A stretch of DNA of 32,000 nucleotides, from NCBI RefSeq assembly GCF_964030745.1, contig NZ_OZ034918.1:1020001-1052000 (forward strand), in the 5' to 3' direction. This DNA is from Candidatus Saccharimonadota bacterium. Lineage in GTDB: Bacteria > Bacteroidota > Bacteroidia > Cytophagales > Amoebophilaceae. How positions within the stretch are numbered: the first letter of the stretch is position 1; each line of letters opens with the position of its first letter. Made by a program: the position numbers and the translations under genes. The notes beneath the pieces were generated by a model, which saw only the letters and a list, made by a program, of their open reading frames with translations, did not search any database and was not told the DNA's origin. Positions 4,451 to 29,612 of the stretch are shown piece by piece.

Positions 4451-6448
<1,998 letters not shown>

Positions 6449-6464
6449 TTAGCCGAAAGGAACA

Positions 6465-6761: not shown

Positions 6762-6786
6762 AGATGGAGGAAATTGTTGTTAAAAA

Positions 6787-7173: not shown

Positions 7174-7286
7174 GTAAAGTTAAGTAAAAACCCCTATATT
7201 GGCCATACTATTCCCTAGAAGGTAACTAGGTTTTTCAGGAGCCTCATTACATGTTTGTATATAAGGAATGATAGCGCATATAAAGA

Positions 7287-8189: not shown

Positions 8190-8247
8190 TGCGCTTGCAA
8201 AACTCGATTGTCGGTAAAATCTATTATATTTAGACAAATATGTCTGT

Positions 8248-8916: not shown

Positions 8917-9100
8917 AGGAATATGTAATATTTATTTGGTTTTTTTTTAGATTAACCTTAATATTGCTGCTATTAAGTCATTTGGTGGGGCGGTTTGGCC
9001 TTGTAATTTAAGACCAGCTTGTTTTTCACATATAATTAATAGAAGTTTATAGTAAGTAAATAAAAGGAGTTCATAACACACACAATTTTTTAATATTATT

Positions 9101-9838
9101 ATGAAAGGAATCAAAAAAACTTTAATGGCGGGCTTATTGGCTTTCGCTGGGGTTGAAGGAGCACGCGCGGAGGTTAGTTCATGGGGTTATGGTATCCATG
9201 TTAGTGGAGGCACTTCTTCTGCTATAGGGTATGATAATGATGCTAAGATTGGTGGTAAAAAAGCAGAGGGGAGTTTCTTTAGTGACATGGCTTATGGTGC
9301 TAATTTTTATGGTGAGTGTCCAATTACAGGTTATGTAGGTATTGGGGGAGAGCTTGGGTGGATCAGGCAAGGAGCTAGTTTAGAGCCAGAGTCAGGGAAA
9401 GAGGCAAGTGAGACCAGCAACTCTACCGACTCATCTGTTAGCATGGCTAGCCACAATATTGCTGCTGGATTGAATCTATGCATCTACCCACTAGGTCGTG
9501 AAGAGGGTGAAGGTATTTTGAAAGTTAAGCTAGGCGCTGTTGCTTATGTCCCACTCCATACAACTTATAAAAAAGGGAGTACAGATTTAACACTTACATC
9601 TGAGCAAAAAACCAAGGAAGCATCTTTTGATGTAGCTGCACTGGGTAGTGTTGGATATGAATTCCCTATGGGCCTTGTTGTTGAAGCTGGATATCGTTAT
9701 GGTATTATGAATAAGTTTAAAGCAGACCAACAAATATTGACAGCGGGCAATACTGGTATTGAGGGGTTAAAGGAGGTGCATATCCATAATGCTATGCTTT
9801 CTCTAGGTTATAACTTTGCCTCTTTGTTATCAGAGTAA
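9101..9838 (+). CDS. outer-membrane beta-barrel protein (OmpA-like/porin family)
   Basis: Signal peptide MKGIKKTLMAGLLAFAGVEGARA. Gly/Tyr-rich amphipathic beta strands (GGELGWIRQG, VEAGYRYGI) and a terminal strand AMLSLGYNF. Confidence 0.6.
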   Translation: MKGIKKTLMAGLLAFAGVEGARAEVSSWGYGIHVSGGTSSAIGYDNDAKIGGKKAEGSFFSDMAYGANFYGECPITGYVGIGGELGWIRQGASLEPESGKEASETSNSTDSSVSMASHNIAAGLNLCIYPLGREEGEGILKVKLGAVAYVPLHTTYKKGSTDLTLTSEQKTKEASFDVAALGSVGYEFPMGLVVEAGYRYGIMNKFKADQQILTAGNTGIEGLKEVHIHNAMLSLGYNFASLLSE

Positions 9839-9938
9839 GCTCAGTAAAGGAGGTGTAGCGTTTGCAAGGCCTTCTTTTACCTGGCTTTAGCAGCAGCTAG
9901 CTGATTGAATATTTAAGCAGCTAGCTATTGCTTGATAT

Positions 9939-10010
9939 GGCCCGTTCGTCTAGGGGTTAGGACGTCAGGTTTTCATCCTGGAAACAGGGGTTCGATTCCC
10001 CTACGGGCTA
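9939..10010 (+). tRNA. tRNA-Glu (anticodon UUC)
   Basis: Cloverleaf read by hand: acceptor GGCCCGT/ACGGGCT (G1-U72 wobble), D arm TTCGTCTAGGGGTTAGGAC, anticodon stem-loop TCAGG-TTTTCAT-CCTGG (TTC), T arm AGGGG-TTCGATT-CCCCT. It is colinear with E. coli tRNA-Glu. CCA is not encoded. Confidence 0.85.
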
Positions 10011-10029
10011 CGTTTTCAACTCACCATTG

Positions 10030-10453
10030 GTATCCATTCATCACTGTGGTTACGTTTTTCTGAAAAAGCAAATAGCTAACCAAGTACCAGCCTCGCGTCT
10101 CCTTCGATAAAAAAATGGCGCTCTAGTAGACCTCTTGCAAAACCTACTTTGTGATGAGCAATTTTTAGGAGAAGTGTAGTCGAGCACCGCAGAATACTTA
10201 ATGTATTTGAGGAGCATAGACAAGCTTCGACACCAAAATTGCCATTAGAAATAGGTTTTGCAAGAGGTCTAGTAAAACACTAACAGGTGAGCGATATATT
10301 TTCAGCGGATTAGAAAATCGTCTGTTTGAAGCCCGCTTGCGGGCTGAGTTTACGATTTTCCCGCTAAAAAACATATCGATTCATCTATTTACTATCGGGC
10401 CAGATTTTTTATCGAGGGAGATAAGGCGGACAGCCAGAGGCGTGAATGGATAC
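10030..10453. mobile_element. 424-bp MITE-like element, copy E2 (module A with nested 141-bp MITE), 8-bp TSD CACCATTG
   Basis: Termini are GTATCCATTCA (10030) and TGAATGGATAC (ends 10453). A perfect 8-bp direct repeat CACCATTG lies at 10022-10029 and 10454-10461. The element starts 20 bp downstream of tRNA-Glu. Confidence 0.85.
10129..10269. mobile_element. 141-bp nested MITE (N) inside E2
   Basis: 17-18 bp perfect TIR GACCTCTTGCAAAACCTA / TAGGTTTTGCAAGAGGTC, flanked by TAGTA at 10124-10128 and 10270-10274. Copy E1 carries the uninterrupted site (3287-3300). Confidence 0.8.
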
Positions 10454-10513
10454 CACCATTGCTGCCCATTTAACTTATTCAAGGCGCTTTCCTAAAAACA
10501 GAAGCGATTCTTT

Positions 10514-11851
10514 TTAGTTTAGCTGGCCTACCATTTCTTTGAGGTTGCTCATTAGGGTGATTTTTATATCAAAGGATTGGGCAAGTTGTTGGGGATGGGG
10601 CGCTATAAATACCTCTTTAAACCCTAGTTTTGCTGCTTCTGCTATTCTATATTCCATTCTTTGTACGTTCCTAAGCTCACCGCCTAGCCCGATTTCTGCT
10701 ATAAAACATTTCAGGTTTGAGAGCACCTTGTCTTTTAAAGCGCTTACAACTGCCATACAGATGGCTAAATCTAGTGCAGTATCATCTACCCTAAGCCCTC
10801 CTGTAATATTTAAAAATACATCCCGGTCATGCAGACGCAAGCCTGTGCGCTTTTCTAATACAGCCAGCAACATGTTGAGGCGTCTAGGATCATAACCTGT
10901 AGCATTGCGTTGAGGATGGCCATATCTGGTCGCTGTTACCAATGCTTGAATTTCAACCATTAGGGGTCTGGTTCCCTCTAAACAGGAACCAATTGCTATG
11001 CCACTTAAAGCATAGTCTTGCCCAGAAAGCAGTATAGAAGAGGGGTTTTTTACACCATGGAGGCCACTGACTTTCATCTCATATATGCCTAATTCTGATG
11101 TAGGACCAAACCTGTTTTTTATTGTCCGAACCATTCGGTATAAACATGGTTTATCTCCCTCAAATTGCAATACCGTATCTACCATGTGTTCCAATAGTTT
11201 AGGGCCTGCTAAAGCTCCATCCTTATTGATATGGCCTATTAAAAATATAGCCACGCCCGAACTTTTGGCGTAATGCAACAATCGTGTGGTACAAGCTTTA
11301 ATCTGGTTGATGCTACCTATTCCACCTTCCTCTTCCTCAGCATATAGGGTTTGAATGGAGTCTATAACCAATAAAGTGGGCTCCAAATCATTTGCATGGT
11401 TGAGGATCTGTACCAGTGCACATTCCTGTACTAGAAAGCAATTGGTTGAGGATAACCCTAGACGAGAAGCACGTATTTTAATTTGACTTTCTGTTTCTTC
11501 TCCAGATACATATAATACTTTAGCCTCTTTTAACTGTAGCGCTATTTGGAGCAAAAGCGTTGATTTGCCAATGCCAGGTTCACCGCCTAATAGCACCAAC
11601 GAACCGGGCACAATGCCTCCACCCAGCACCCTATTGAATTCGGCATCTTCAGATAGCAGTCGTTTATTAGTAGTCGGTTGAATCTCATCTAATCTTTTAG
11701 GTTGGTTGGCAGCTGGCTGATTTTCCATTATACCCCGTTTAGTGCTGCTTTTTGTAGTAAATAGGGTTAGCCGATTCCATTCCTTGCATCCGTCACACTT
11801 TCCTTGCCATTTAACATATTCAAGCCCACAGTTTGTACAGACATATGCCAT
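10514..11851 (-). CDS. radA: DNA repair protein RadA/Sms
   Basis: 445 aa. Zn ribbon CTNCGLEYVKWQGKCDGCKEW, Walker A GEPGIGKST, IKNRFGPT motif and a Lon-protease-like C-terminal domain. Confidence 0.95.
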   Translation of the reverse strand: MAYVCTNCGLEYVKWQGKCDGCKEWNRLTLFTTKSSTKRGIMENQPAANQPKRLDEIQPTTNKRLLSEDAEFNRVLGGGIVPGSLVLLGGEPGIGKSTLLLQIALQLKEAKVLYVSGEETESQIKIRASRLGLSSTNCFLVQECALVQILNHANDLEPTLLVIDSIQTLYAEEEEGGIGSINQIKACTTRLLHYAKSSGVAIFLIGHINKDGALAGPKLLEHMVDTVLQFEGDKPCLYRMVRTIKNRFGPTSELGIYEMKVSGLHGVKNPSSILLSGQDYALSGIAIGSCLEGTRPLMVEIQALVTATRYGHPQRNATGYDPRRLNMLLAVLEKRTGLRLHDRDVFLNITGGLRVDDTALDLAICMAVVSALKDKVLSNLKCFIAEIGLGGELRNVQRMEYRIAEAAKLGFKEVFIAPHPQQLAQSFDIKITLMSNLKEMVGQLN

Positions 11852-12753: not shown

Positions 12754-12977
12754 TACAGTCTGGAGGTAAGGGCATAGGTGTTATAGGTCGTTTGTAGTTT
12801 CCTTAAGGCTATCTACTACTGCATGTAGAAGTAAAATTTGTTTTATACTAGATAAAGTTTTAAACTTGGAAAATTTGTTTGTTGCGTTAGTAGGTGCCTT
12901 ACCTATTTTACTTTGGATAATAGTCGCTACTATAGGGTCTATTTATGTTGCGTCATTTATTATAATTGAGACTAAAA

Positions 12978-14129
12978 ATGGATAATTACACGATATTTAC
13001 TTCTGAGTCTGTATCTGAAGGACATCCTGACAAGATGGCGGACCAAATTTCTGACGCGATTCTCGATGCGATTTTAGCACAAGATAAATATGCACGTGTT
13101 GCATGTGAAACACTTGTTAAAACCGGAATGGTATTAGTTGCTGGTGAAGTGACGACAGAGGCGTGGGTTGATATAGAGCAAATTGTTAGAGAAACGGTGA
13201 AAGAAATTGGTTACAACAGCTCTTCTATAGGTTTTGATTGGGAATCTTGTGCTGTTATATTAGCGATTGGTAAGCAATCATCTGATATTGCACAAGGCGT
13301 AGATAAGTTAGATAAAGCGGAGCAAGGTGCGGGTGATCAAGGTATGATGTTCGGGTATGCGAGTAATGAGACGGATGTACTAATGCCAGCACCTATCACC
13401 TATGCGCATAGGCTTATGGAGCGACAGGCAGCGCTGCGAAAAAATAAGATTGTAGATTGGTTGCGGCCTGATGCAAAAAGCCAAGTGACACTGCGTTATA
13501 GAGATGGGAAGCCTATTGCAGCTGAAACCATTGTGGTTTCTACGCAGCATGCGCCTGAGATTTCCTATGCTAAATTAAAAGAGGCTATTGTTGAAGAAAT
13601 TATAAAACCTGTATTTCCAGTGGAATGGTTAACGAAAACGACTTTCCATATCAATCCAACTGGACGTTTTGTTATTGGCGGACCGCTAGGAGACACAGGG
13701 TTGACTGGGCGTAAAGTTATTGTGGACACTTATGGCGGCATGGCTAGACATGGCGGTGGCTGTTTCTCGGGTAAGGATCCCAGTAAAGTGGATCGTTCTG
13801 CAGCGTATGCGGCACGTTATGTTGCAAAAAATATCGTTGCCGCAGGTTTAGCCGATCGTTGTGAATTGCAAATTTCCTATGCGATTGGTGTTGTGCAACC
13901 GACATCTATTACCATTAATACATTTGGCACAGGTAAACTGTCGAATGAGCGCATTATTGAACTGATTCATCAACATTTTGATTTGAGACCGTATGGACTT
14001 ATTGAAATGCTTAATTTACTAAGACCTATTTATAAACTAACGGCAGCCTATGGTCATTTTGGACGTGAGCAGGGAGATTTTCCTTGGGAAACAACAGACA
14101 AAATAGAACTATTACGCTCAGCCCTTTAA
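12978..14129 (+). CDS. metK: S-adenosylmethionine synthetase (proteobacterial-looking)
   Basis: 383 aa from the ATG at 12978 ([11 protein letters not shown]...). [65 protein letters not shown] and [19 protein letters not shown] are present. It is near-colinear with E. coli MetK as I remember it. Confidence 0.95.
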
Positions 14130-15902: not shown

Positions 15903-15985
15903 TTATCTATTCACACCTGTGGCTGGTCCCCATATCTCCTTCGATAAAAAGTCTGGTCCGATAGTAATCAATCAACTGAATGATG
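15903..15985. repeat. solo terminal arm (~80 bp) of the MITE family
   Basis: TTATCTATTCACACCTGTGGCTGGTCCCCATATCTCCTTCGATAAAAAGTCTGGTCCGATAGTAA aligns with the first ~70 nt of E1 (3107-). The rest of the element is absent. Confidence 0.65.
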
Positions 15986-16275
15986 AAGGATATACTGCGT
16001 TGCATTTGGCAGCGCAATATGGTTTTACAACCATAATAAATATGTTACGAAGTGCCAAAGGCATTTTAGTCAATTTGAAAAATAATAATGGTAATACCCC
16101 GCTTCATATGACAGCAGCCTTTAATGCGCTTACAAACGTAGTGGAAGCATTAATGAAATTCCCAGGGATTTTACACAATGAGAAAAATAAAGACGGCGAC
16201 ACACCACGTGATCTAGCAAACGATCAATATCATGAAGAAGTAGTCGAGTGGCTTGATAATTATAATAAAATATAA
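15919..16275 (+). CDS. ankyrin-repeat protein (short, probably a remnant; GTG start inside the MITE arm)
   Basis: ANK repeats DEGYTALHLAAQYG, NGNTPLHMTAAFNA and DGDTPRDLA. The first ~20 codons (MAGPHISFDKKSGPIVINQL) are encoded by MITE-arm sequence. Confidence 0.65.
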   Translation: MAGPHISFDKKSGPIVINQLNDEGYTALHLAAQYGFTTIINMLRSAKGILVNLKNNNGNTPLHMTAAFNALTNVVEALMKFPGILHNEKNKDGDTPRDLANDQYHEEVVEWLDNYNKI

Positions 16276-16313
16276 AAGCACTGTTTATAGCTGCAGGGCA
16301 GTTCTTTAGCCCA

Positions 16314-16949
16314 TGTGAAGTTTCAACAGAAACGCTACAACAAGTGATTTATAAAAATATAAAATTATATGTAGTAGTTGATGTGACAAAGGTGGGTAAT
16401 CAGTGCTATCAGTTTACTGCTGTATATGATTGTACAAGACTTAGAGTGTTAAGGCTATATCCTAATAAAACCGCTAAAAATTCAGTTTTATTTTTGCATG
16501 AAATCTTAGGGCATTTTCCTTTCCCGATTCAGCGTGTTCAATCTGACTGGGGAACTGAATTTTTTAATGCTTCCTTTCAAGAAGAGTTAATGGTTCACTT
16601 TATAAAGTTCAGACCCATTAAACCTAGCAGTCCGCACCTAAACGGAAAGGTAGAAAGATCACAACAAACCGATAAAGTAGAGTTTTATAATTTGCTAAAT
16701 CTTAAAGATGCTGCGATTAACTTACCAAAACTTCTTGCAGAATGGGAATATTTTTACAATCATAAACGGCCGCACTCCGCGTTAGGAGGCAAAACTCCTT
16801 GGGAAAAATTTAAAGAACTAGAACCAAAAACATCTATTCAACCAGATGTCACTCAAATGTACTGGGATAGTAATGAGCATATTTTACCAAGGTCTAGCAA
16901 ATACCTAAAATGGAAAAGAAAAATGTCTCACTTCTGTTGAAACTTCACA
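16314..16949. mobile_element. IS481-like element, internal-deletion derivative (636 bp)
   Basis: 18-bp perfect inverted repeats TGTGAAGTTTCAACAGAA (16314-16331) and TTCTGTTGAAACTTCACA (16932-16949) enclose only the catalytic core of an rve-type transposase. No clear TSD. Confidence 0.7.
16344..16940 (+). pseudogene. N-terminally truncated DDE (rve) transposase, IS481-like
   Basis: Integrase core strings VVDVTKVG, SDWGTEFF, HLNGKVERSQQT and YNHKRPHSALGGKTPWEKF. The HTH/N-terminal ~100+ aa are missing and the ORF opens with GTG 12 nt after the left IR. Confidence 0.7.
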
Positions 16950-17047: not shown

Positions 17048-18718
17048 ATGATGCGTAAGATAGATGCACTACCGATTGGCTACTCAGATGTTAAATCAGT
17101 GATTGAAACAGGTTATTATGTAGATAAAACCAGGTATGCACAAGATTTAATAGAAAAAAGAAATCCTATCTTCATAGCCCGGCCTAGGCGATTTGGCAAG
17201 TCTCTATTTATCAATACACTAGCTACCATATGCAATGGAGAAGAAGCAGTATTTAAAGATTATCATATAGGTAAGCCAAAAAACGGATATGAGTGGAAGA
17301 AATATCCTATTATTAGGCTGGACCTATCTAGGTTGACCAACGACACACCAGAGGAATTAAAAACCTCCATCAAAGGCGCCCTAAAAAAAATAGCATTACT
17401 ATATGCACTAGAAATAGAGGACCATACTATAAAAGACACTTTAGAGAATTTAGTCTTGCAGTTGGTTAATTTAACCCGCACTAGTTCCAATAAAGAGATC
17501 AGATCATCTAATTATGCCTCCAAAATAGTAGTATTAATAGACGAGTATGATGCCCCTATTGTTCATCTAACCAAAGGCTCCGATCTAGAGCAATCCAATA
17601 TTAAAGTCATGAAAGATTTCTTTATGACTTTGAAGTCACTAAATGACTACTTTCAACTCACTTTTATCACTGGCGTAAGCAAATTCAGTTTATCTGATGT
17701 ATTTTCAGGTGCCAATCATTTAGACGATATTACTATTTCCAAAGATGCTGATGCCATGTTTGGCTATACGCAAGAAGAAATATTATCCACTTTTTCAGAT
17801 AATATAGATACTATTGGTTTACAATGGAGTAAAGAAGAGGGTAGACAAGTAACAGATCTAGAAGTTATGAACCGCATAGCAACCTATTACAATGGATATA
17901 GATTTCATAAGGATGGCGTATCTGTTTATAATCCTTGGTCTACTTTAAAATTTCTTAAGCATGGCGAACTAGCCAACTACTGGTACGAGTCAGGCAGTCC
18001 AAGCTTACTCATTAATCAGATGCTAACAGATCCTGATAGGTTTGATATTAATATGGAAAGCCTCCAAATAGAGGCCGCTAGAGAAGACTTAATGTACACA
18101 GAAAGTAGAAATGAGATTAGTTTAAAGTCTCTGATGTTTCAAACAGGATATCTAACCATTGACCGTTATGATGAATCTACTGGTCTATATACATTAAAGT
18201 TCCCTAATAGAGAAATAGAAGCATCTTTTCAGAAAAGTATACAATCTAGCTTAGAAAAAAGCGTCAAAGATTACTTTATACACGAGCGCGATACCATCAG
18301 ACAAGCATTATCTGATAAAAAAGTTGAAACTTTTATAGATCACATCAATACAGTTTTTGCCACACTTCCTTATTACCTGGATACCAAACAAGAAAAACAA
18401 TACCATAGCAATTTACATATGTTGCTGCAAGGATTAGGCTTTCTAGGTGGTAGGAAAATGCATATGTATAGTGAATCCGCTTCTAGCCAAGGCAGATCAG
18501 ATATTGTGCTAGAATTAGGAACAGCCATATATATCATAGAGCTTAAGTATAAATCCACTGGTCAAATAGCCTTAGACCAAATCAAATCAAACGGGTATTA
18601 TAAGCCTTACTTACTTAGACAAAAAGCCCTTATACTTTTAGGTCTTAACTTTAATGAGGAAACCAGAATGATAGATAACTGGGCGTATGAAATAGTAAAC
18701 AAAGAAACTTCAGCCTAG
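17048..18718 (+). CDS. AAA-ATPase-like / PD-(D/E)XK nuclease family protein
   Basis: 556 aa. N-terminal FIARPRRFGKSLFINTL (P-loop of the 'predicted AAA-ATPase' family), VVLIDEYD (Walker B-like), and C-terminal GRSDIVLE...IYIIELKYK (D...E.K nuclease motif). Confidence 0.8.
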   Translation: MMRKIDALPIGYSDVKSVIETGYYVDKTRYAQDLIEKRNPIFIARPRRFGKSLFINTLATICNGEEAVFKDYHIGKPKNGYEWKKYPIIRLDLSRLTNDTPEELKTSIKGALKKIALLYALEIEDHTIKDTLENLVLQLVNLTRTSSNKEIRSSNYASKIVVLIDEYDAPIVHLTKGSDLEQSNIKVMKDFFMTLKSLNDYFQLTFITGVSKFSLSDVFSGANHLDDITISKDADAMFGYTQEEILSTFSDNIDTIGLQWSKEEGRQVTDLEVMNRIATYYNGYRFHKDGVSVYNPWSTLKFLKHGELANYWYESGSPSLLINQMLTDPDRFDINMESLQIEAAREDLMYTESRNEISLKSLMFQTGYLTIDRYDESTGLYTLKFPNREIEASFQKSIQSSLEKSVKDYFIHERDTIRQALSDKKVETFIDHINTVFATLPYYLDTKQEKQYHSNLHMLLQGLGFLGGRKMHMYSESASSQGRSDIVLELGTAIYIIELKYKSTGQIALDQIKSNGYYKPYLLRQKALILLGLNFNEETRMIDNWAYEIVNKETSA

Positions 18719-18803: not shown

Positions 18804-21800
18804 TTAATTGTTCATTACAATACCCTTTTCTTTATTTGTATTTTCACAAGCCTCTAGTGCTTGCTTGGCGGCTTTTTCTAGAACTGTTCCTATCTCTTTT
18901 CCTAAGTATGTATTAGCTATTTGCACATCTATAGCCAATGTTTCTTGCGCCATATGTTGAACCTCTGTTAGATGGATATAGCCTGAAGCATGGCGTAGGT
19001 CATAGAGTCTCTCAGCCAATTTAATAAAGAGTACAGAAAGCTGTACGTGATCTTCTTTAATTGCTTTCTTCAATCTATTTTTCACATAAAGCAAAGAGGC
19101 ATGATCTAAGTCTTGGCGTTTATCTATCCCTACCACATTTAACACAAATGCATAAACCCCTAAATTATAATGTTTCTTGATATAAGAAATCGGTAAACAA
19201 GTACGACGAACCAATTCATATAGCAAAGCAGCATAAATCACTTTAGGAGAGTGAAACACCCATTCTATCACTAATTCAGCAATCCCTACTGATCGAACAT
19301 AAAACAACTGTCCAGATGCATGCCGCTTAAATCCAAAATTTTTCCGTAATAATAAAAGCAAACCAGAAATCGTCTTTACATCAATAGGATCTTCTTTATG
19401 AGAGAATTTGCAGACATAGTCATGGAATTGCATTAATACCATCATCGAATCAGCCTGTTCCTTAGGTGTTACAGGGGACTCTAAGGCTAGGGAATCTATG
19501 GGTAAGGTGGTAGTCATCTTACTGAGGATATCAGTAACCTTATTCGGCAGCACTAATAACATAGATTTTTTGCTAGCATCATAAGGATCTTCTAAATATC
19601 CGTAGTGGGCCTCAATAATAGTAGATATGGTTTGTTGTTGCAGATCTATGGATAGCGGAACTTCCTGTTTACCTTTTGGTCCCATATAATCCATGAGATC
19701 ATCATAATGCTCCTTTACTTCAGGTAACGCTTGCGAATCAATAGTAGCATGGCTGATAACCAGAGCAGTAGCCTTAAAATCCATAAAGGTAGGATATCTG
19801 TTATCGATAGAATCCGCTTGCATAAAGTGCAAAGTAGTAGGATGCAGTTGTATACGAATAACTGGTGAAACATCGTTCTCTATTTTACCAATCCGTAAAA
19901 CAGATTGAACCAATAAATAAACTAATTGGTTGATATCGCCTATAATAGATAGGTTTTTATCAACATCGTTTATTGTTTCTAACAGAATCCTAGGTGGATC
20001 AATAATCTCTTGTGATAATGCTATTTCCACTTTACGAATCAGTTTATCGAAAGTAATTTTAGTAGGCTGTAACAGCGCATGGTCCTTAGATTTTTCTCTC
20101 CTATTGAAATAGGCTATCCAATCATAAAACTTATTGATAATACTTTGTAAATCTTGCTTATAAATGGGAATATCATTATCTAAAAAGGAGATAGATTCCT
20201 CAATCTTACCAACTACTTGGTTTAAAATAAATCCATAACCTTTAGGGGTATGAGAAGTAGAACCATTTGATGGAACCATTGCTGCATCGTAAAGGGAGGC
20301 TTTTACTCGTTGAGATTCTCTGATTTTTTCTTGATTTTTTAGGTAAATATTCTGTGTGGTAATATTACCTACTTTGATTTTAAAGCAAATAATAATAGCA
20401 AATACCAGTATACCCATCATACATAATGGTAATAAAGAGCCTAATAAAGGAAAAGCACATCCAACATAAATCAGATAAATAGCTACTAATGATGTAATGG
20501 CAGTAACCCTTATGCTTATATAAAGAGGAAAAATCCATAAAATTATAAATAAATGGGAAAAAGATAAGGATAAGGTAAAGATAAGATCATGAGGATACCA
20601 CCAGGTAAAAAGTAAACTTATAGGAAGATAAACTGACAAACCCACTAACCAGTATAGGCTAATAAACCAACTAGGAATAGACCTTATTTTTTTGGAAATA
20701 TCATAAAGAAATGGATAGCCTAAACAACAAGCTGATCCAAATAGCTGAATAGTAAGCCAGCATCCATCATGATCCGTAATACGAATCATAGAATAAGTAA
20801 ACAAACTAGTAATGGTAATATACAATCCTACACATACCATCGTAGTGTGGCTGGGCATCAATTTGGATAAAGTATCTTTTCGATTTGTCCAATAATTCTT
20901 AATCGCTTCTTTTCGCTCTGCACGCTTACGGGAACTTTCTTGTTTAATTTGTTTAAATGTATCATCTGTTCCAATCCATCCTCTATCTATTGGTTGTTTT
21001 GATAGATAATGAGCTGCCATCATAGCTAGACCATTGGCTAGCATAGCAATGACAGAACCATCTATACCAGTAGAAGATTGAACTAATTCGTTCCATATTA
21101 GAATGGTCAACACACCTGTACCCATACCGATTAACGCTGTACGGGAAGTGCCTCGAAAACCAAAGACGGCAAGTAATAGCGGAGCAGCTGTAATAGGCAC
21201 GGACACTTGAAGTGCCCAACAAAGTAACCGGAACAAATCGTTGCAGTAAAAAGCTATTATCATGGCTAATAAACCAGTAACTAGAGAAGAAATTCTTACT
21301 ACATATAACTGATGTTTTTCTGATAATATGTGCCACTTTGAGTAAATATTAGCAAGCAAATCATTGGTAAGCATAGTAGCACAGCTATTTAAACTAGAGT
21401 CAGCAGTCGACATAGTCATAGCAATTAGTCCAATTAGAATTGATGCTTGCAAAATAGGGGGGCATTGACCGATAATATAGGGCCAAATTTCTTCTATACT
21501 TAAATGCTTTATGGCTACAATAGTAAACAAACCAATGAGAATGATAAAACCTACTATAAGTAGGTTAAAAATGCTAGTATAATAAAAAACTTTTTTAGCT
21601 TGTATAACTCCAGAAGACATATAGACCCGTTGCACCATACTAGGTCTTCCACTAGGTATTATGATCGCTAATACCAGCATAAATACTCCAATAAATTTAC
21701 GATTGATATGAAATAAACTATCCAATTGAAACTTAGTCGAACACTTTAAGCAGGAAATTATCTCTGTTACCGATTGGTCGATATGTATATACATATACCA

Positions 21801-22385
21801 AGTAAAAAATGGAATAACAATTGTAAATGTGATAAATTGCATAACATCAGTAAAGGTAACAGAACGAATGCCACCCAAACTGGAATAGGTAACAAAAATT
21901 AGACTAATGGCCACTGTAATAGCATAGGGATCTATATTAGGTATACAGATAGCAACAGATGAAGTGACTACATTAATTTGTGTAACAATAGTTATAAGGG
22001 AGCGTACTACACCAAATAGTGCAGAGATGATTCTAGGCCATGTACCATATACACTACCTATGCTTTCTGCTGTGGAAAGGTGGTACATAAATGGTCCCAT
22101 ACGTGGTATAAGTAGCGTCCATATCCAAATAGAGATACTGTCTGCCAGTAATATAATTATATAATATATACCCTGATTATAAATCTGTTGTACAGTACGC
22201 ATCAAGGCACCTCCCCCATAAAGTGTAGCTAGTAATGTAGCCACTAAAGTAGCAGTAGCAAAATTTTTATTACCTATTGCATATTCACGTAAGGAAGTTA
22301 TTTTACCGCTATAATACATACCTACGACTAATGTTAGTAACAGAAAGGATATGATTATAGTTGACAGAATATATAAGGTTAACAT
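18804..22385 (-). CDS. SLC5/SSF-family permease fused to extra TM block, degenerate histidine-kinase-like core and degenerate RelA/SpoT-type HD domain
   Basis: 1193-aa uninterrupted ORF. aa 1-465 carry about 13 TM helices of sodium:solute-symporter type. aa 512-672 carry about 6 more TM helices. aa ~715-950 are DHp/HATPase_c-like with His, N-box and G-boxes replaced. aa ~1005-1165 are SpoT HD-like (AALLYELVRRT, LFIKLAERLYDLRHA, AQETLAIDVQIANTYLG). Confidence 0.85.
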   Translation of the reverse strand: MLTLYILSTIIISFLLLTLVVGMYYSGKITSLREYAIGNKNFATATLVATLLATLYGGGALMRTVQQIYNQGIYYIIILLADSISIWIWTLLIPRMGPFMYHLSTAESIGSVYGTWPRIISALFGVVRSLITIVTQINVVTSSVAICIPNIDPYAITVAISLIFVTYSSLGGIRSVTFTDVMQFITFTIVIPFFTWYMYIHIDQSVTEIISCLKCSTKFQLDSLFHINRKFIGVFMLVLAIIIPSGRPSMVQRVYMSSGVIQAKKVFYYTSIFNLLIVGFIILIGLFTIVAIKHLSIEEIWPYIIGQCPPILQASILIGLIAMTMSTADSSLNSCATMLTNDLLANIYSKWHILSEKHQLYVVRISSLVTGLLAMIIAFYCNDLFRLLCWALQVSVPITAAPLLLAVFGFRGTSRTALIGMGTGVLTILIWNELVQSSTGIDGSVIAMLANGLAMMAAHYLSKQPIDRGWIGTDDTFKQIKQESSRKRAERKEAIKNYWTNRKDTLSKLMPSHTTMVCVGLYITITSLFTYSMIRITDHDGCWLTIQLFGSACCLGYPFLYDISKKIRSIPSWFISLYWLVGLSVYLPISLLFTWWYPHDLIFTLSLSFSHLFIILWIFPLYISIRVTAITSLVAIYLIYVGCAFPLLGSLLPLCMMGILVFAIIICFKIKVGNITTQNIYLKNQEKIRESQRVKASLYDAAMVPSNGSTSHTPKGYGFILNQVVGKIEESISFLDNDIPIYKQDLQSIINKFYDWIAYFNRREKSKDHALLQPTKITFDKLIRKVEIALSQEIIDPPRILLETINDVDKNLSIIGDINQLVYLLVQSVLRIGKIENDVSPVIRIQLHPTTLHFMQADSIDNRYPTFMDFKATALVISHATIDSQALPEVKEHYDDLMDYMGPKGKQEVPLSIDLQQQTISTIIEAHYGYLEDPYDASKKSMLLVLPNKVTDILSKMTTTLPIDSLALESPVTPKEQADSMMVLMQFHDYVCKFSHKEDPIDVKTISGLLLLLRKNFGFKRHASGQLFYVRSVGIAELVIEWVFHSPKVIYAALLYELVRRTCLPISYIKKHYNLGVYAFVLNVVGIDKRQDLDHASLLYVKNRLKKAIKEDHVQLSVLFIKLAERLYDLRHASGYIHLTEVQHMAQETLAIDVQIANTYLGKEIGTVLEKAAKQALEACENTNKEKGIVMNN

Positions 22386-22575: not shown

Positions 22576-23943
22576 ATGGAGTTTTTCCCTATAGAGTTTT
22601 ACCAACAGGAAGCAGACAAATGGATTAATCCATATCAGGAAGGATATGAAAAACCATTATTGGACAAACAGATACAACAATCTTATTTGAAAAATTTACA
22701 GGAACGCTTTTTTGGTACTGCATCTCCTTGGGATCAAGACTACGTTAAACAGGTTCTACAAACAGACATCTGGGCTAGTGAAAAAAAGCAGCTTACAATA
22801 TTTTCTAATCAGGATGATCTGTCGCAATCCAAATGGTATGGCCTTAACTTTAGACCTTATCCACACAAAAAGATACAAGATATAGCCGATACAATTCCAT
22901 TAGACGAACTGAAAATATTATCCTTTCATAAAGAAAACAGGGCAATAACAATTAAAAATTTAACAGGAAGAAGCCTACCTACAACAGATATTTATGTACG
23001 CAGCATTATTCCGGGTTATGGCTATCCGCTTGACAAACTACAAGCCTCTTCTCTGTTTATTGGTACCCCTATTTATGTTATAAATCAAACGAAAGATAAA
23101 CGTTGGTCCCTTGTTATAACACCAGACTTTATTGTATGGGTTGAAAGCGATGGGATAGCCTATACCAATGACAACTTTATTGAAACATGGAGATCTATTG
23201 CAAAAGAAAAGCTTGCTGCAATTATACAAACAGACACAGCTTTAGTAAATCAACAGGGAAGATATTTAGCAACAGCCTATATCGGTGCATTGTTTCCAGC
23301 ACGTAGTGCTATAATGGAAAAACTGATTTTGTCTGTACCTATAGCTGATAAAGATGGAAATGCCTTGTTATCTGATGTGGTAGTTAACTCAACGCAAGCG
23401 GCATATATCCCCATTAGTTCATCTCCAAGAAATTTTTCTCAATTAATAAATAGCTTAAAAGGGAGGCCTTATGGTTGGGGAGGGTTATCATACTATAACG
23501 ATTGTTCTGCAGAGCTTAAATGTCTTTTCCTTCCTTTTGGTATTTGGTTGCCTCGTCAATCATACGACCAGATGAAAGCAACAGCAGTGGTTGACTTAAG
23601 TACTTCTACACCAAAGGAACGTCTTACTTATTTAATTGAGCATGGAAATCCATTTTTTACCATAATGTACATTAAAGGACATATCTTTTTGTACTTAGGG
23701 AATTTCCCGCAAGTTGGCCAAAAATTACCTATGGTAATGAGTTACCAAAATATTTGGGGGCTATCTAATCTAACAAAAGATAAAATATCCATAATTGGAG
23801 AAGCTGTTTTTCTTCCGCTGCTACTTAACTATCCAGAAGATGCTAGTCTTAACTCACTCTTAAGTAGAGATACATTTCAAGTAGGTCATTTGAATCAGTT
23901 ACCACCAGGCTATCCTAAACTTATTCTCCCATATGTACTCTAA
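22576..23943 (+). CDS. NlpC/P60-family cell-wall peptidase with N-terminal SH3b-like region (YkfC-like)
   Basis: C-terminal catalytic signature GRPYGWGG..YNDCSAELKCLF..GIWLPRQSYDQ ... IKGHIFLYLG (Cys/His). No signal peptide. An in-frame stop 42 nt upstream of the ATG limits N-terminal extension. Confidence 0.8.
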   Translation: MEFFPIEFYQQEADKWINPYQEGYEKPLLDKQIQQSYLKNLQERFFGTASPWDQDYVKQVLQTDIWASEKKQLTIFSNQDDLSQSKWYGLNFRPYPHKKIQDIADTIPLDELKILSFHKENRAITIKNLTGRSLPTTDIYVRSIIPGYGYPLDKLQASSLFIGTPIYVINQTKDKRWSLVITPDFIVWVESDGIAYTNDNFIETWRSIAKEKLAAIIQTDTALVNQQGRYLATAYIGALFPARSAIMEKLILSVPIADKDGNALLSDVVVNSTQAAYIPISSSPRNFSQLINSLKGRPYGWGGLSYYNDCSAELKCLFLPFGIWLPRQSYDQMKATAVVDLSTSTPKERLTYLIEHGNPFFTIMYIKGHIFLYLGNFPQVGQKLPMVMSYQNIWGLSNLTKDKISIIGEAVFLPLLLNYPEDASLNSLLSRDTFQVGHLNQLPPGYPKLILPYVL

Positions 23944-24642: not shown

Positions 24643-25124
24643 GTCGGCCCTGAAATATTATATATTTATTTGTTTGTGAATATAAAAACCCGTATATTAT
24701 AATATATATAATAACCATTTTTAGAGTTTTTTTGTATAAAACCTTGCAAAATAGGGATGAAATCTAAGAGGATAAATCATTCTTGTTGTAGGCTTTTTGA
24801 GCAACGCTTATCTGGGATTCTTAATCCCCAACACGCCTTATTTCAGTTAGCTGATTCCATTCCTTGGCAATCCTTAGAATCAGATTTAGATCGCAGCTTT
24901 AGCTATGGACCCGGTCAACCTCCTTTACCTATTCGTTTGATTGTAGGTCTACTCATTATCAGTCATATGTACCAAGTTTCTGATGAGCAAGTAGTTTCTA
25001 GATGGGTAGAAAATCCTTATTGGCAATACCTTTGTGGCTATGATTATTTTCAGATTAAGGCAGCTTGTCACCCTAGTTCATTAACTCGTTGGCGTCAAAG
25101 ATTGGGAGCAGAAGGTCTTAATAA

Positions 25125-26121
25125 CCTGAGTTCTGGATTAGACTTATTGTAAATCAGTCATATATATGTTAGTTATAGAAGGTTTTTTTTTCTTTTAGTC
25201 CATAAGCTGTGATTCCAGCGATCAAATTGACTAAAAAATTAGGTATACTTCTGTGCCTGGAGTGTTCTATCTGGCTAATATTTTTAAGCTGATCTATAAT
25301 TGTTTCAATAATAGATCGCTTTCTAAGCATCAGTTTATCCCAGAGTGGCATAAATGCATTTTTCATATTTTTTCTGATTTGAGTAATCAGTTCCATACCT
25401 TTATCTATCAGTTTCTCAAATAAATCTTTACTCAAGTAGCCTTTATCGCTGAACACTTTACCCATCAAATTTTTACATAAATTTTCTACAGGGAATCTAT
25501 CATTAACTTTACCTGTGGTAAGTGAAAAGTTCATAATTTCTCCTAAATCATTGACTATCAAGTGTAATTTCATCCCAAAAAACCACCCGGTGCTGGTTTT
25601 ACCTTTAGTAGCAATCGATTTAAAAACCTTATGAGCATAGGATCTTTTGACATTACAAACTTTGATGGCTGTTGCATCCATAAAGTAGCAACCTGTTTTT
25701 GTTTTAGAGAGACTTTGTGTAAAAAAGTACATTGGTACTAAGGATCTCTGAATCAGTGCTATAAATCTAGTATAGCTTACTAGATTACTAAAGTCATTAG
25801 AATGAAACTGCTGTAGATGAGCATAATATGACTTAAAGTTTCTAAAGCCAATTACATGAAAGGCAATTAATATGGTCATTATTTCGCTCAAAGACAACGA
25901 ACAAGTTCTAGTAGGTTTTCTTGTAGAGTGGGGTAACAGTTGACTTTCCATATAAGGCATAAATTTTTTAAGAATTCATCGACAGCGAAATATATTTCGA
26001 CTAATTTTGTTACATTCATAATGGGCTCCTTTGTTAATTTGGTTATTGTTTTCAACTCCAAATTTAAAACACAAAGGGGCTCTTTTAAACGCATTCTTAA
26101 ATTTCTAATCCAGAACTCAGG
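25125..26121 (-). mobile_element. IS982-family insertion sequence (997 bp), 7-bp TSD TTAATAA
   Basis: 18-bp perfect IRs CCTGAGTTCTGGATTAGA (25125-25142) and TCTAATCCAGAACTCAGG (26104-26121). Direct repeats TTAATAA lie at 25118-25124 and 26122-26128. Confidence 0.85.
25169..26019 (-). CDS. IS982-family transposase in two frames (-1 shift needed at an A6 run)
   Basis: The N-terminal 20 codons start at the ATG at 26019 (MNVTKLVEIYFAVDEFLKN). The body is the 263-aa ORF 25169-25960 (SLSEIMTILIAFHVIGFRNFKSYY, DATAIKVC, GWFFGMKLHLIVNDLGEI, DKGY). The frames overlap at TTAAAAAAT (T-run 25964-25969 on the plus strand). Confidence 0.7.
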
Positions 26122-27199
26122 TTAATAAGATCTTATCGATGACTATACAATTAGCCATTAAAAAAAAAGTAGTCTGCCCAAAAGAACTTGAAAAAGTGAT
26201 ATCCGACACTACTGTAATGGAGAAAAATATTCGCTATCCAACTGATTCTTCGTTGCTTAATAAGGCTAGACAAAAACTAGTGGCTATAGCTAAGAAAACA
26301 GGCGTTAAACTCCGTCAAACCTACCAACGTCTAGGCCCAGCTATCAAACGTAAAGTAGATGGCTATGCACATGCTAAACAGTTTAAACGTTTAGCCAAAG
26401 GCGTTAAAACATTAAAAAACTATCTTGGTCGGGTGGTAAGAGATGTAGAACGCTCTATGCAATCGTGTGATGAAGCAATACGCACCCAGTTTAGACATCT
26501 GCTTTCTATAAGTAAAAGGATTATTAACCAATCAAAAAAAAGTAAAAATAAAGTCTATAGTATCCATGAACCTGCTGTTTACTGCGTAAGTAAAGGTAAG
26601 GCTTTAAATCCCTATGAGTATGGTTGTAAGGTGCAATTTACGCTCACCCATAAACAAGGCTTGATTGTATCAACGGAAGCTTTAGATCCTAATGAATATG
26701 ATGGACATACCTTGCATAGAAGTTTATTACAAGCAGAAAAACTATCTGGTACTCAGGTAAAACACCTCTTCGTAGACAGGGGTTACAGAGGTCATAATAT
26801 ACCTAATAGTCAATGTAATATATTTATAAGCGGCTCTAAAAGAGGTATAACGCCTAGTCTCAAAAAAGCACTAAAAAGAAGATCTGCTATTGAACCACAT
26901 ATTGGTCATATGAAATCTGATGGTAAGTTAGCGGTTAACTACTTGAAAGGAATATTGGGAGACAAACTCAATGCTATTCTATGTGCTATTAGCCATAATC
27001 TACGCCTTATTACAAGAAAAACATTCCTAATACCCACCTAATCAGGTAAAATAAAACCTATAGCACTAAGATGCTTTATCCTGAACTAACGTATACAGAT
27101 ACCAGGATTAGAATAGATACAGAACATGAAAAAATTGAAATGGGGCAGGTGATTATTTTTTTAATAAATAACTTGAAGTATGAATACTTCAGGGCCGAC

Positions 27200-27396
27200 T
27201 ACTTAATGTATTTGAGGAGCATAGACAAGCTTCGACACCAAAATTTCCATTAGAAATAGGTTTTGCAAGAGGTCTAGTAAAACACTAACAGGTGAGCGAT
27301 ATATTTTCAGCGGATTAGAAAATCGTCTGTTTGAAGCCCGCTTGCGGGCTGAGTTCACGATTTTCCCGCTGAAAAATATATCGATTCAGCTATTTA
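27200..27396 (+). repeat. right copy of ~198-bp direct duplication flanking the IS5-family element
   Basis: See 24445-24642. It continues seamlessly into the right arm and terminus of E3 (27397-27458). Confidence 0.8.
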
Positions 27397-27583
27397 CTAT
27401 CGGGCCAGACTTTTTATCGAAGGAGATAAGGCGGCCAGCCAGAGACGTGAATAGATGCGTAAATTTCTTGGTTATCAGCGTATTACACATAATATATCTA
27501 AAACATTTGTTAAACAAATGCAAATGTTTACATATTAATATAAATCAATAACTCTCGTTATTAGACAATACTTTTGGAATAAA

Positions 27584-28269
27584 CTATTTAGAAAACTGAT
27601 CTAATAGATCATCTAGATATTGACCATCGTTCGCATTAAACTGATATAAAAGAGGCCCTTCCTTTCCATGATATATTTTTTCCCAATCCTTATGTGAAGC
27701 ATCATTACGAAGTATATCATCACCAGAATGGTGTATTTTAAATGCTAAAATACCTCTCCGAACTGAATCATTATAAGTACCATCTGTTTTGATATTATAT
27801 CCATATTCGCGTAGCTTTTGGATCCATTCTTGTTCATCTTGTGATAACCTACTATCTTTTTCCTTATAAGACACTACTATGTCAGGGTTTGGACTTATAC
27901 TTAAGTCCTTTTTTCTGGGGTATATACCAAAATTTTTATTAATGTTCAGTTCATTAAAAGATGGTTCGTCCTGTGCATTAGCCAATTTGTCCCAAAAGAA
28001 ATAAGGATTTGGATCAATTTTTCTACTTGGATCCCAATCGCTATGTCCTAGCATTAGTTTAGCATCAATGCTCCTATGCTGTTGAGTAAGCATTGCAGAC
28101 AGTTCTACATTAGACTTGATTTGTGCCTCTGTATAAGGTTGATTACCATTATTTACATTTTCAATTCCAATAGACCAACTATTCATATCATTTTGTAGTT
28201 CGGAATAAGATACTAAAGAACTACTAAGTTTAGAGCTTGCAGCTAAACTACCAATGCCTGCGTGATAAG
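27584..28269 (-). pseudogene. N-acetylmuramoyl-L-alanine amidase (amidase_2) gene, C-terminal part with peptidoglycan-binding domain
   Basis: The reading frame is open upstream of the listed Met back to the IS junction (..YHAGIGSLAASS..MNSWSIGIENVNNG..LMLGHSDWDPSRKIDPNPYF). The C-terminus is PG_binding_1-like (IQKLREYGYNIKTDGTYNDSVRRGILAFKIHH). Confidence 0.8.
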
Positions 28270-29612
28270 GGCTCTGTCCAGTTAAGTGTGTAACTATATT
28301 TTAGGGTTGTTAGATTCTATTTTCAAATTTAATTAAAAAATGAGCCATAGCCTCACTCCAATTATGGATAGGCGTGGTCCATTTTCTGGTCATATAGTTA
28401 ATAGTTAAATATAATGTTTTAAACACAGCTATATCGTTAGGGAACACTCTTTTATTTTTGGTAACTCTACGAAATTGGCTATTTACAGATTCCACGGCAT
28501 TGGTTGTGTAAATGACTCTACGTATGGCGTTAGGATATTGTAAAAATATCATCAGATTATCCCAGTTAGCATACCAAGACTTGGCTATTTGTGGGTATTG
28601 TTTATCCCATTTAGTAGCAAAAGTTTCTAATGCCATCAGGGCTTCTTCTTGAGTAACTGCTGTATAAATTGGCTTTAAATCAGCAACTAATTCCTTTCTA
28701 TGTTTATAGGACACATACTGCAGACTATTCCTAATTTGGTGAATAATACAGAGTTGGTGATCTGTTTTAGGGTATACAGCAGCGATTGCCTCAGACATAC
28801 CTGGCAAGTTATCTGTACATGCAATGAGCATATCGTTCATACCCCGATTTTTGAGTTCTGTTAAATTACCTAACCAAAATTTAGCTCCTTCATTTTCACT
28901 CATCCACAGCCCTAAAACATCCTTTATGCCAGATCTATCTATACCTAAAGCAACATAGACTGCCTTGTTGATGATACGTTTATCTTGTCTAACTTTAACT
29001 ACAAAACAATCAAAAAAAACAATAGGATAGACTGATTCTAATGGGCGATTTTGCCATATCTTAACATCTTCAATAACAGAATCTGTGATGTTACTTATCA
29101 GGCTTTCACTAACTTCTGCACCATATAATTCCTGTATTTGAACCTGAATATCTGATAGGCTCATACCTTTAGCGTATAAAGATAAGATCTTATCATCTAA
29201 ACCAGGAATTCTTGTTTGGCGTTTAGGTAATAAAACAGGTTCAAAAGTAGAGGATCTATCTCTTGGAACTTCAACCGATATAACCCCATGATCAGTGATA
29301 ACTTGCTTGCTGGATAAGCCATTACGAGCATTTTCTGAATCACTACGAGCATGCTTGTTATAGCCTAAATGGCTATCCATTTCTGACTCTAAGGCTTTTT
29401 CTACAAGACGCTTACTTAATTGTTTGAGTAAACCGCCTTGGTCAAATAGGGTCGATAAGTCTACGCCTGAGTCTATCAGTACGTCTATAGCCTTGCTTAT
29501 GCCGTCTTTGGGTGTCTCTTTTCTTTTCATTTTTTTAGGGTTAAGGGTGACTCTCTAGAAAGAGAGAAATAGACAACCTAAAAATTACTTACACACTTTA
29601 AAAGACAGACTC
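28270..29612 (-). mobile_element. IS256-family insertion sequence (1343 bp), 8-bp TSD GTGATAAG
   Basis: About 30-bp imperfect IRs (GGCTCTGTCCAGTTAAGTGTGTAAC... at 28270; ...TTACACACTTTAAAAGACAGACTC ending 29612). Perfect 8-bp direct repeats lie at 28262-28269 and 29613-29620. Confidence 0.85.
28310..29530 (-). CDS. IS256-family (Mutator-type) transposase, apparently intact
   Basis: 406 aa. LEKALESEMDSHLGY, VFFDCFVVKVR, CTDNLPGMSEAIAAVYPKTDHQLCIIHQIRNSL and TTNAVESVNSQFRRVTK are typical of IS256 transposases. Confidence 0.9.
   Translation of the reverse strand: MKRKETPKDGISKAIDVLIDSGVDLSTLFDQGGLLKQLSKRLVEKALESEMDSHLGYNKHARSDSENARNGLSSKQVITDHGVISVEVPRDRSSTFEPVLLPKRQTRIPGLDDKILSLYAKGMSLSDIQVQIQELYGAEVSESLISNITDSVIEDVKIWQNRPLESVYPIVFFDCFVVKVRQDKRIINKAVYVALGIDRSGIKDVLGLWMSENEGAKFWLGNLTELKNRGMNDMLIACTDNLPGMSEAIAAVYPKTDHQLCIIHQIRNSLQYVSYKHRKELVADLKPIYTAVTQEEALMALETFATKWDKQYPQIAKSWYANWDNLMIFLQYPNAIRRVIYTTNAVESVNSQFRRVTKNKRVFPNDIAVFKTLYLTINYMTRKWTTPIHNWSEAMAHFLIKFENRI

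Follow-up and report, generated by a model that had tools for sequence, protein, structure and literature searches.

A symporter–HD fusion of Cardinium symbionts as a transporter-coupled signalling protein turned double pseudoenzyme

Why would an obligate intracellular symbiont keep a large membrane protein whose two cytoplasmic enzyme modules have both lost their catalytic residues? The question is raised by a gene at 18804..22385 on the minus strand of the 32,000-nucleotide (nt) stretch analysed here (the window; contig NZ_OZ034918.1, positions 1,020,001 to 1,052,000), which comes from the Cardinium endosymbiont of Philonthus spinipes. Its product joins a sodium:solute symporter (SSS) permease, a six-helix membrane block, a histidine-kinase-like module and a RelA/SpoT-type HD domain. 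We find that it is a transporter-coupled signalling protein turned double pseudoenzyme, and that it is real and under selection. What it does can be proposed with less assurance; on balance, we favour an importer-sensor with 19 transmembrane (TM) helices and a non-catalytic regulatory or dimerisation tail, kept in multiple copies in Cardinium and other Amoebophilaceae.

The gene is the intact open reading frame (ORF) of 1193 amino acids (aa) that a first-pass annotation, made from the letters alone, had described. From end to end, the product matches WP_342265292.1, deposited from this symbiont as 'HD domain-containing protein', with 100% identity. A 3.6-kb frame without interruption in DNA of 37% G+C lies far outside what chance could produce. 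Searching the window for further copies or fragments of the gene returned none. Its parts are as follows, in protein order.

18804..22385 (-), complete ORF, 1193 aa plus stop, ATG start, product identical to WP_342265292.1
20991..22385 (-), SSS/SLC5 (LeuT-fold) sodium:solute symporter domain, 13 TM helices, aa 1-465
21405..21410 (-), Na2-site codons S326-T327
20850..20990 (-), Lys/Arg-rich amphipathic cytoplasmic linker helix, aa 466-512
20361..20849 (-), second membrane block of six TM helices, aa 513-675
20076..20360 (-), signalling helix continuing from TM19, then a DHp-like hairpin (717-733, 740-766) without a conserved phospho-acceptor His, aa 676-770
19506..20075 (-), CA-like (HATPase_c-derived) alpha/beta domain without N, G1 and G2 boxes, aa 771-960
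19599-19610 (-), AHYG motif, aa 926-929
19371..19505 (-), partly helical linker between the kinase-like module and the HD domain in the structural model, aa 961-1005
18876..19370 (-), RelA/SpoT-type HD (HD_4) domain with all catalytic positions replaced, aa 1006-1170
19293..19295 (-), codon R1031, in place of a metal-ligand His
19203..19220 (-), codons Y1056-E1057 and R1060-R1061, in place of the HD metal ligands and the ED catalytic pair
18999..19013 (-), codons E1125, Y1128 and D1129, in place of D144, H147 and N148

The amino-terminal domain is an SSS/SLC5 permease, as had been read by eye from about 13 TM helices in aa 1-465. TIGR00813 (NCBIfam) matches the query over model positions 1-411 (E 3e-15) with 56 bits, under its curated cut-off of 184 bits, and Pfam SSF (PF00474) is precomputed for nearly all homologues of the query and unreported for the query alone. 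A profile built from 101 family members reached the structures of the choline transporter CHT1 (1.3e-22) and the sialic-acid symporter SiaT (6.9e-22) in the PDB. An AlphaFold2 model of aa 1-700 (pLDDT 92.7, pTM 0.81) also places 13 TM helices in the permease, and Foldseek aligned this model to SiaT (5nva; E 4e-13, TM-score 0.83, root-mean-square deviation (rmsd) 3.6 Å), with further matches to CHT1, NIS, SGLT and vSGLT. The ion sites are retained. S326 and T327, the TM8 pair of the Na2 site, correspond to SiaT S342/S343 in the alignment with 5nv9 and to PutP S340/T341, lie inside a near-invariant MSTADS motif and are at least 90% conserved in the 101 sequences. D180 and S330 (SiaT D182 and S346, Na3-like) are likewise conserved across the family.

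Behind the permease, the AlphaFold2 model resolves the charged linker into helices 475-500 and 502-508, followed by six TM helices (513-534, 541-563, 572-596, 601-618, 621-642 and 652-699), which agrees with the second block of about six helices first placed at aa 512-672. The last of these extends into the cytoplasm as one long helix. No Pfam family matches the second block, and it is common to all family members and to relatives that carry a live kinase, described below. With 13 plus six TM helices and a positively charged, Lys/Arg-rich linker between them, the remainder of the protein, the tail, is predicted to be cytoplasmic.

Recognising the first module of this tail took more than domain profiles. 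Pfam HisKA and HATPase_c found no match in the query at E<=10, nor in eight distant homologues at E<=1. When the profile was restricted to the middle domain and run against the PDB, it matched the histidine kinases ThkA (1.9e-8) and ZraS (1.4e-5), and more weakly VicK/CovS, AdeS and HK853 (E 0.008-0.05). In the AlphaFold2 model of aa 681-1193 (pLDDT 78), a helical hairpin is followed by an alpha/beta sandwich, and the top Foldseek matches are the DHp-CA structures of RetS, CckA, ZraS, HK853 and DivL (E 3e-6 to 1e-4). Aligned by hhalign with the live-kinase relatives, the middle domain gave a probability of 95.5% and E 1.4e-8 over 226 columns. The assignment of aa ~715-950 to a histidine-kinase core whose catalytic positions are lost is thus borne out by profile, fold, alignment and conservation. 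Across the 101 sequences, no column of the DHp region holds a conserved His at the acceptor site, and aa 800-960 contain no conserved Asn- or Gly-rich columns; in the alignments, the N, G1 (DxGxG) and G2 boxes are replaced. What is invariant in this module is the AHYG motif, together with P947.

Two details of the first-pass annotation needed amending here. The H-box is indeed lost, and hhalign places it at aa ~703-716 (AMVPSNGSTSHTPKG), about 10-15 residues upstream of the FILNQVVGKIEE segment originally chosen, with the H-box position itself falling on S709/T710. The N-box is lost as well, with its Asn positions corresponding to Gln or Arg rather than Ser. In the segment to which hhalign assigns the lost H-box, the live relatives have EHEGHTP or NHELRLP, and the query alone has SHTP (STSH at aa 709-712, nt 20250-20261, within 20238-20279). 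The histidine concerned, H712, is unconserved among paralogues, and the model places it within or next to a loop of low confidence; the segment is either a relic or a coincidence.

The carboxy-terminal domain was more readily identified. Pfam HD_4 (PF13328) matches aa 1021-1158 (E 4.4e-8) and, at 33.5 bits, clears its gathering score of 27.2, so that a profile search of the tail, as first suggested, sufficed for this domain, whereas the kinase link needed the middle-domain profile, the fold search and hhalign. The family profile matched Rel hydrolase domains (8acu, 1vj7) at 1.8e-30 to 2.3e-29 and the small hydrolases Mesh1 (5vxa) and HDDC3 (3nr1) at 2e-13. Foldseek recovered the HD fold of Thermus thermophilus Rel (6s2u), RelSeq (1vj7) and SpoT (7qpr) with E ~1e-4 and rmsd 4.7-6 Å over ~210 columns. 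These results agree with the (p)ppGpp-hydrolase HD domain proposed for aa ~1005-1165, and the residue replacements listed for it were exactly right, including the Y1056-E1057 codons at 19215-19220.

Each catalytic element of this domain is absent. The metal-ligand set H...HD...D is missing, its positions being occupied by R1031 (RelSeq H53), Y1056-E1057 and E1125; the catalytic ED pair has become R1060-R1061, and the HN of the DRxHN motif Y1128-D1129. The same substitutions run through the whole clade of Cardinium and Amoebophilaceae proteins. In all 87 full-length members, the eight key positions carry, in order, R, Y, E/D/G, R, H/Y/R, E, Y and D, and six are near-invariant: Arg at 1031 (86/87), Tyr at 1056 (87/87), Arg at 1060 (81/87), Glu at 1125 (87/87), Tyr at 1128 (85/87) and Asp at 1129 (87/87). 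Judged by these residues and those of the kinase-like module, the tail is incapable of kinase or metal-dependent HD hydrolase action.

How did a protein come to carry two dead enzymes? Its relatives supply an order. The Philonthus symbiont holds at least nine full-length paralogues, strain cHgTN10 holds 14, and every other complete Cardinium genome seen has several; related proteins also occur in metagenome-assembled genomes (MAGs) labelled Amoebophilaceae. In a rough neighbour-joining (NJ) tree, all 87 proteins of the Cardinium/Amoebophilaceae group form one clade. Outside it, other Bacteroidota encode homologues of equal four-part architecture and the same length (a 1191-aa Roseivirga sp. 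MAG protein, P0273, and P0107-P0120) that are 25-27% identical to the query and present in 1-3 copies, against 9-19 in the symbionts. Their kinase module is dead already and AHYG is invariant, and they have the full HHDEDDHN signature of the HD domain with a Pfam HD (PF01966) match, from which they are predicted to be active (p)ppGpp hydrolases. A few of their paralogues have lost HD residues independently.

A further set of relatives lacks the HD domain altogether. P0274-P0277, metagenome and genome proteins of 770-978 aa, fuse the SSS domain and six-TM block to a real HisKA and HATPase_c pair that passes the Pfam cut-offs, and they share the membrane module with the query family at profile E 1e-116 to 1e-68. 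Because the kinase core is dead in relatives whose HD domain is intact, the two catalytic losses were sequential. The simplest reading of these sequences is a series from an SSS-6TM sensor kinase, through a protein with a dead kinase and a live (p)ppGpp hydrolase, to one in which both are dead. In the first step, the DHp/CA core would have lost its His and ATP-binding boxes and persisted as a dimerising transmitter driving the fused SpoT-type hydrolase. In the second, placed in an ancestor of the Amoebophilaceae, the HD domain would have undergone the changes H>R, HD>Y+E/D/G, ED>R+H/Y/R, D>E and HN>YD, after which the new residues froze. The rough NJ tree is consistent with the most economical account, in which the double loss was fixed once in that ancestor and the family was then amplified.

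One Bacteroidota MAG (GCA_054552495.1, locus L002) carries two members in tandem, a degenerate one upstream (4085-7573, signature NHNDVEHI) and an intact one (8001-11492, P0110, HHDEDDHN); a third, degenerate paralogue (P0115) may share the contig. A live and a dead copy side by side on a dimerising scaffold suggests regulation by heterodimers. We also considered an origin of the HD domain in the Rickettsiales rickSpo proteins and rejected it: among the short HD matches inspected, most were fragments or live HD proteins of the ordinary kind, one fragment was Amoebophilaceae-like and nothing pointed to a special link with Rickettsiales, and the full-length tree sets the clade beside the Bacteroidota SSF-HD proteins. 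By phmmer search, the tail module is rare, with aa 681-1193 matching 145 of 1.84 billion representative sequences; nearly all of these have the same architecture or are fragments of it, and the last-ranked are ordinary long RelA/SpoT homologue (RSH) enzymes. A profile search with the basal clade returned no protein labelled A. asiaticus among its matches.

Is this tail maintained or merely lingering? Ratios of nonsynonymous to synonymous substitution (dN/dS) show constraint in every domain. Against the copy in Cardinium of Dermatophagoides farinae, dN/dS is 0.21 for the whole gene, 0.19 for the SSS domain, 0.27 for the six-TM block, 0.23 for the kinase-like module and 0.17 for the HD domain; against the intact copy from the Nabis limbatus symbiont, the corresponding values are 0.24, 0.19, 0.18, 0.33 and 0.20. 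At equal dS, the neighbouring NlpC/P60 gene has a dN/dS of 0.23, as does, in effect, the whole symporter-HD gene. Fisher tests reject neutrality for the HD domain (p 4e-11) and for the kinase-like module (p 1.5e-9), and intact 1193-aa orthologues exist in three beetle or bug Cardinium strains. The argument of the first-pass annotation that an unbroken frame reflects selection for a non-catalytic role thereby gains support (dN/dS 0.21-0.24 gene-wide, 0.16-0.20 in the HD domain).

Comparison among paralogues places the strongest constraint at the carboxy terminus: dN is by far lowest in the HD domain (0.06-0.16), whereas the SSS domain reaches 0.40-0.47. Paralogues of a single genome share 87-94% of their residues in the HD domain, 75-92% in the DHp-like part and 58-60% in the permease. 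We analysed dS within genomes at Nabis limbatus, cEina3 and cBcalN2 loci. In the Nabis genome (NZ_OZ239769.1), dS between some paralogues drops from 1.3-2.0 to 0.1-0.4 in C-terminal tracts. Locus L011 differs from L004 by a dS of 1.3-1.8 in the permease and 0.28-0.37 in aa 751-1050, and from L007 by 0.11 in aa 1051-1193. This mosaic points to gene conversion that was partial and did not extend beyond the C-terminal half.

The gene lies in a chromosomal region that the first-pass annotation had described as full of genes broken by insertion sequences (IS). The truB gene and a NUDIX gene are also among its neighbours; the other features of note in the window are these.

4451-6400, gyrB, housekeeping gene
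10514-11851, radA, housekeeping gene
12966-14129, metK, housekeeping gene
15919-16940 (+), ankyrin-repeat ORF of 118 aa, then an ORF of 198 aa matching part of an integrase core only (rve/rve_3)
17048-18718 (+), intact DUF1703-type gene, 556 aa, AAA-ATPase_like PF09820 plus PDDEXK_9 PF08011 (PD-(D/E)XK)
22576-23943, NlpC/P60-SH3b gene adjoining the symporter-HD gene
24757-29530, transposase cluster, genes or fragments: DUF772 (24757-25152), DDE (25169-25960 and 26139-27041) and Mutator-type (28310-29530)
27584-28186, 5'-truncated amidase ORF with transposase genes or fragments on either side

The 198-aa integrase-core ORF just upstream of the DUF1703-type gene is probably a truncated IS remnant. 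The DUF1703-type family is found in several Cardinium strains, and its fragments have been counted as MITE candidates (transposable elements that are miniature and have inverted repeats; PMC12039267). In the D. farinae symbiont, an intact N-acetylmuramoyl-L-alanine amidase gene directly follows the NlpC/P60-SH3b gene (L001, 15779-18242); the amidase ORF of the window looks like an IS-broken gene.

The nearest DNA match to the gene (92% nt identity) is found in that same D. farinae symbiont, on a plasmid of 125 kb (L001, CP101108.1 15150-42731). There the copy is flanked by conjugative-transposon (TraM) genes, recombinases and Rpn transposases, whereas in the window it is chromosomal and stands among housekeeping genes. 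The difference in location indicates that the SSS-HD and NlpC/P60 pair has moved between replicons. An Rpn-family transposase occupies the place on the plasmid equivalent to that of the DUF1703-type gene in the window. No gene neighbour is conserved, with contexts differing among the window, L001 and L002.

Several known systems share parts of this design. In proteins of the CbrA type, an SLC5/SSS permease provides the input to a signalling module in the cytoplasm, following a transceptor logic. CbrA (SLC5-STAC-PAS-HK) resembles the query in joining an SLC5 permease to such a module and differs from it on two counts: the query has no STAC or PAS domain in Pfam and a six-TM bundle there instead in the model, and its kinase is dead, with a (pseudo)hydrolase as the terminal domain. 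Closer still are the sensor kinases P0274-P0277, which share the SSS domain and the extra six-TM block and whose cores align with that of the query over 226 columns; they have real H- (for example, NHELRLP), N, G1 and G2 boxes and no HD domain. One of them is labelled 'Na+/proline symporter/signal transduction histidine kinase' by JGI.

The DHp-CA modules of RetS and DivL signal through protein-protein contact rather than canonical autophosphorylation, and RetS (6dk7/6dk8) and DivL (4q20) are among the top structural matches of the query tail. In those proteins, however, HATPase_c sequence features remain recognisable and the partners are known (GacS for RetS, CckA/DivK for DivL), whereas the query module escapes Pfam. 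For the HD domain, the nearest parallel is RelA[hS] of beta- and gamma-proteobacteria, in which an RSH HD domain without hydrolase residues is kept for a structural or regulatory role (PMC3153485). RelA[hS] has an active synthetase beside that domain and is ribosome-associated, in contrast to the query, which has no synthetase and bears its HD domain on a membrane transporter. The small alarmone hydrolases (Mesh1, 'rickSpo') share the HD_4 fold but are soluble, active proteins of ~180-220 aa, unlike a dead HD domain at the C-terminus of a 1193-aa membrane protein. We found no paper on the combination of SSS, six-TM block and dead kinase with a live HD domain, nor on the doubly dead form. The first-pass annotation had likewise known of no such architecture; as a protein family, it is already represented in RefSeq, in multiple copies, and among Pfam architectures (SSF + HD_4).

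We return to what the protein might do. Most likely, the Na+-coupled permease would import and simultaneously sense a host-derived solute, and the DHp-like hairpin would dimerise the protein. The remodelled, more basic pocket of the HD domain probably serves for binding and not for cleavage, its ligand being either a phosphorylated nucleotide, (p)ppGpp for instance, or a shared protein partner. Binding without cleavage is suggested because the pocket gains two Arg and loses its metal ligands. (p)ppGpp is the obvious candidate ligand in view of the ancestry of the domain and because Amoebophilus retains Rel: A. asiaticus keeps a Rel enzyme (PMC3153485), so the alarmone could exist there. In this way a single cytoplasmic cue would bear on how active an entire set of importers with diversified substrates is. 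A bolder version, which we regard as doubtful, holds that in free-living Bacteroidota the SSS domain acts as a transceptor toggling the fused hydrolase, and that in Cardinium and Amoebophilus the descendant is a metal-free alarmone or nucleotide receptor gating 9-19 host-nutrient importers together. If true, nutrient uptake would be wired directly to the stringent response in a manner hitherto undescribed, with alarmone-controlled transport arising from a double pseudoenzyme.

A number of observations weigh against an importer-sensor with a regulatory tail. The tail model resembles kinases with modest TM-scores of 0.4-0.55, largely because the relative placement of its two sub-domains differs, and its pTM of 0.56 leaves the inter-domain geometry uncertain. 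The new Arg, Glu, Asp and Tyr could merely fill and stabilise the pocket as salt bridges, with no ligand bound. Gene conversion inflates the similarity of tails within a genome; paralogue pairs with a uniform dS of ~1 still have their lowest dN in the HD domain. Individual copies, moreover, do break. A 1-bp insertion at codon ~1032 cuts the HD domain off the D. farinae orthologue, the copy in Cardinium sp. TP is 5'-truncated and contains a stop, and 6 of 22 loci across four Cardinium genomes are broken, with 3 more being short C-terminal-only matches. We examined sequencing error as a source of the D. farinae frameshift and set it aside: the same truncated product appears on three contigs in independent Logan and ENA assemblies, and the lesion is probably real. 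In the frame beyond it, dN/dS is 0.16, which indicates recent loss of one redundant copy rather than neutral evolution of the domain. Thus, of the two signs that the first-pass annotation had named as telling against selection, frameshifted orthologues do occur and neutral evolution of the C-terminal half was not found. Single copies appear to be dispensable, a pattern resembling birth-and-death evolution in a family that is redundant yet under selection.

Set against this proposal, the most serious alternative, which we nonetheless consider unlikely, is that the protein is a plain nutrient importer whose tail is needed only for folding, oligomerisation, membrane insertion or stability, with no part in sensing or regulation. 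The conserved ion-site residues and the diversification of SSS domains among paralogues fit it well, nutrient import is what the literature assumes (PMC5698495, PMC8831229), a DHp-like hairpin is a classical dimerisation element, and the Arg, Glu and Asp replacements could be the pocket-filling salt bridges considered above. It accounts poorly for the HD domain being the most conserved part, with eight former active-site positions nearly fixed across 87 sequences whose identity elsewhere is 30-60%; such constraint exceeds what a passive scaffold needs and is more focused on the pocket, and the ancestors employed the same sensor for signalling outputs. Rather improbable, in our judgement, is a transducer of the pseudokinase type, in which the dead DHp/CA core relays substrate occupancy to a kinase, a regulator or a paralogue and the HD domain is an interaction surface. 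Such a role would suit the RetS and DivL matches, the true histidine kinases among relatives with the same SSF + 6-TM sensor, and the tandem live and dead paralogues of the Bacteroidota MAG, and homogenisation of the tail within a genome is expected if copies share a partner or pair together. However, no gene neighbour is shared by the window, L001 and L002; nor are 9-19 copies of a pure sensor easy to rationalise, and reduced symbiont genomes hold few two-component proteins.

Two further explanations carry far less weight. That the remodelled HD pocket, with another metal or none, has become a new kind of catalyst acting on a nucleotide or other phospho-compound strikes us as very unlikely. 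Besides two Tyr and two Arg, the pocket has three carboxylates (Glu1125, Asp1129 and Glu/Asp1057) close to what was the metal site; the replacements look fixed, not random, and the fold and its surrounding motifs (SG, T1062, R1126) are kept. Yet neither His ligand remains, the ED dyad has been lost and the Asp of the HD pair has given way to a variable residue (E, D, G or A); the Gly that 15 of the 87 sequences have at position 1057 is unlike a metal ligand, and we know of no HD-superfamily enzyme that lacks the H...HD...D set. Least credible of all is a decaying or selfish repeat family spread with mobile elements, of which the intact ORF would be a copy not yet hit. Fragments and broken copies are indeed many, SSS/HD fragments have been listed as MITE candidates in cTPut, the Cardinium of Tyrophagus (PMC12039267), and the closest copy sits, frameshifted, on the D. 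farinae plasmid beside conjugative-transposon and Rpn transposase genes. This view is largely refuted by dN/dS values well under 1 in each domain, on a par with the neighbouring gene, by the intact orthologues of the three beetle or bug strains, by an architecture conserved from free-living-type Bacteroidota onwards and by the expression reported for the family (PMC5698495).

The family has probably been met before under other names. Among the proteins of cEper1 are 12 'putative sodium-solute symporters', each of which is expressed, with two among the top transcripts (PMC5698495), and A. asiaticus expresses 19 symporters in a life-cycle-stage-specific manner, with 'function currently unknown' (PMC8831229). 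These two papers report high expression, and nutrient uptake is the role assumed where one is given. Amoebophilus has 18 homologues described as 'spoT .../sodium glucose cotransporter', compared with 7, 3 and 2 for three strains of Cardinium (PMC6232779), and a 'rickSpo[H] expansion' raises A. asiaticus to 15 RSH proteins (Atkinson et al., PMC3153485). These symporters, cotransporter homologues and expanded RSH proteins are probably all the present symporter-HD family, which a 2025 review of Cardinium does not mention.

Cardinium and Amoebophilus, as obligate intracellular bacteria, must import most of their metabolites, and the symporter-HD family makes up ~1% of their genes. A conserved, doubly dead tail on every copy, a stepwise descent and the contrast between a constant tail and diverging permeases yield testable hypotheses on how these symbionts may coordinate nutrient import. 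The family also offers a clean natural series for the study of how enzymes become pseudoenzymes, and its relatives point to a class of predicted membrane-anchored, transporter-coupled alarmone hydrolases in free-living Bacteroidota. The finding is therefore relevant to research on symbiosis, on alarmones and on pseudoenzymes alike.

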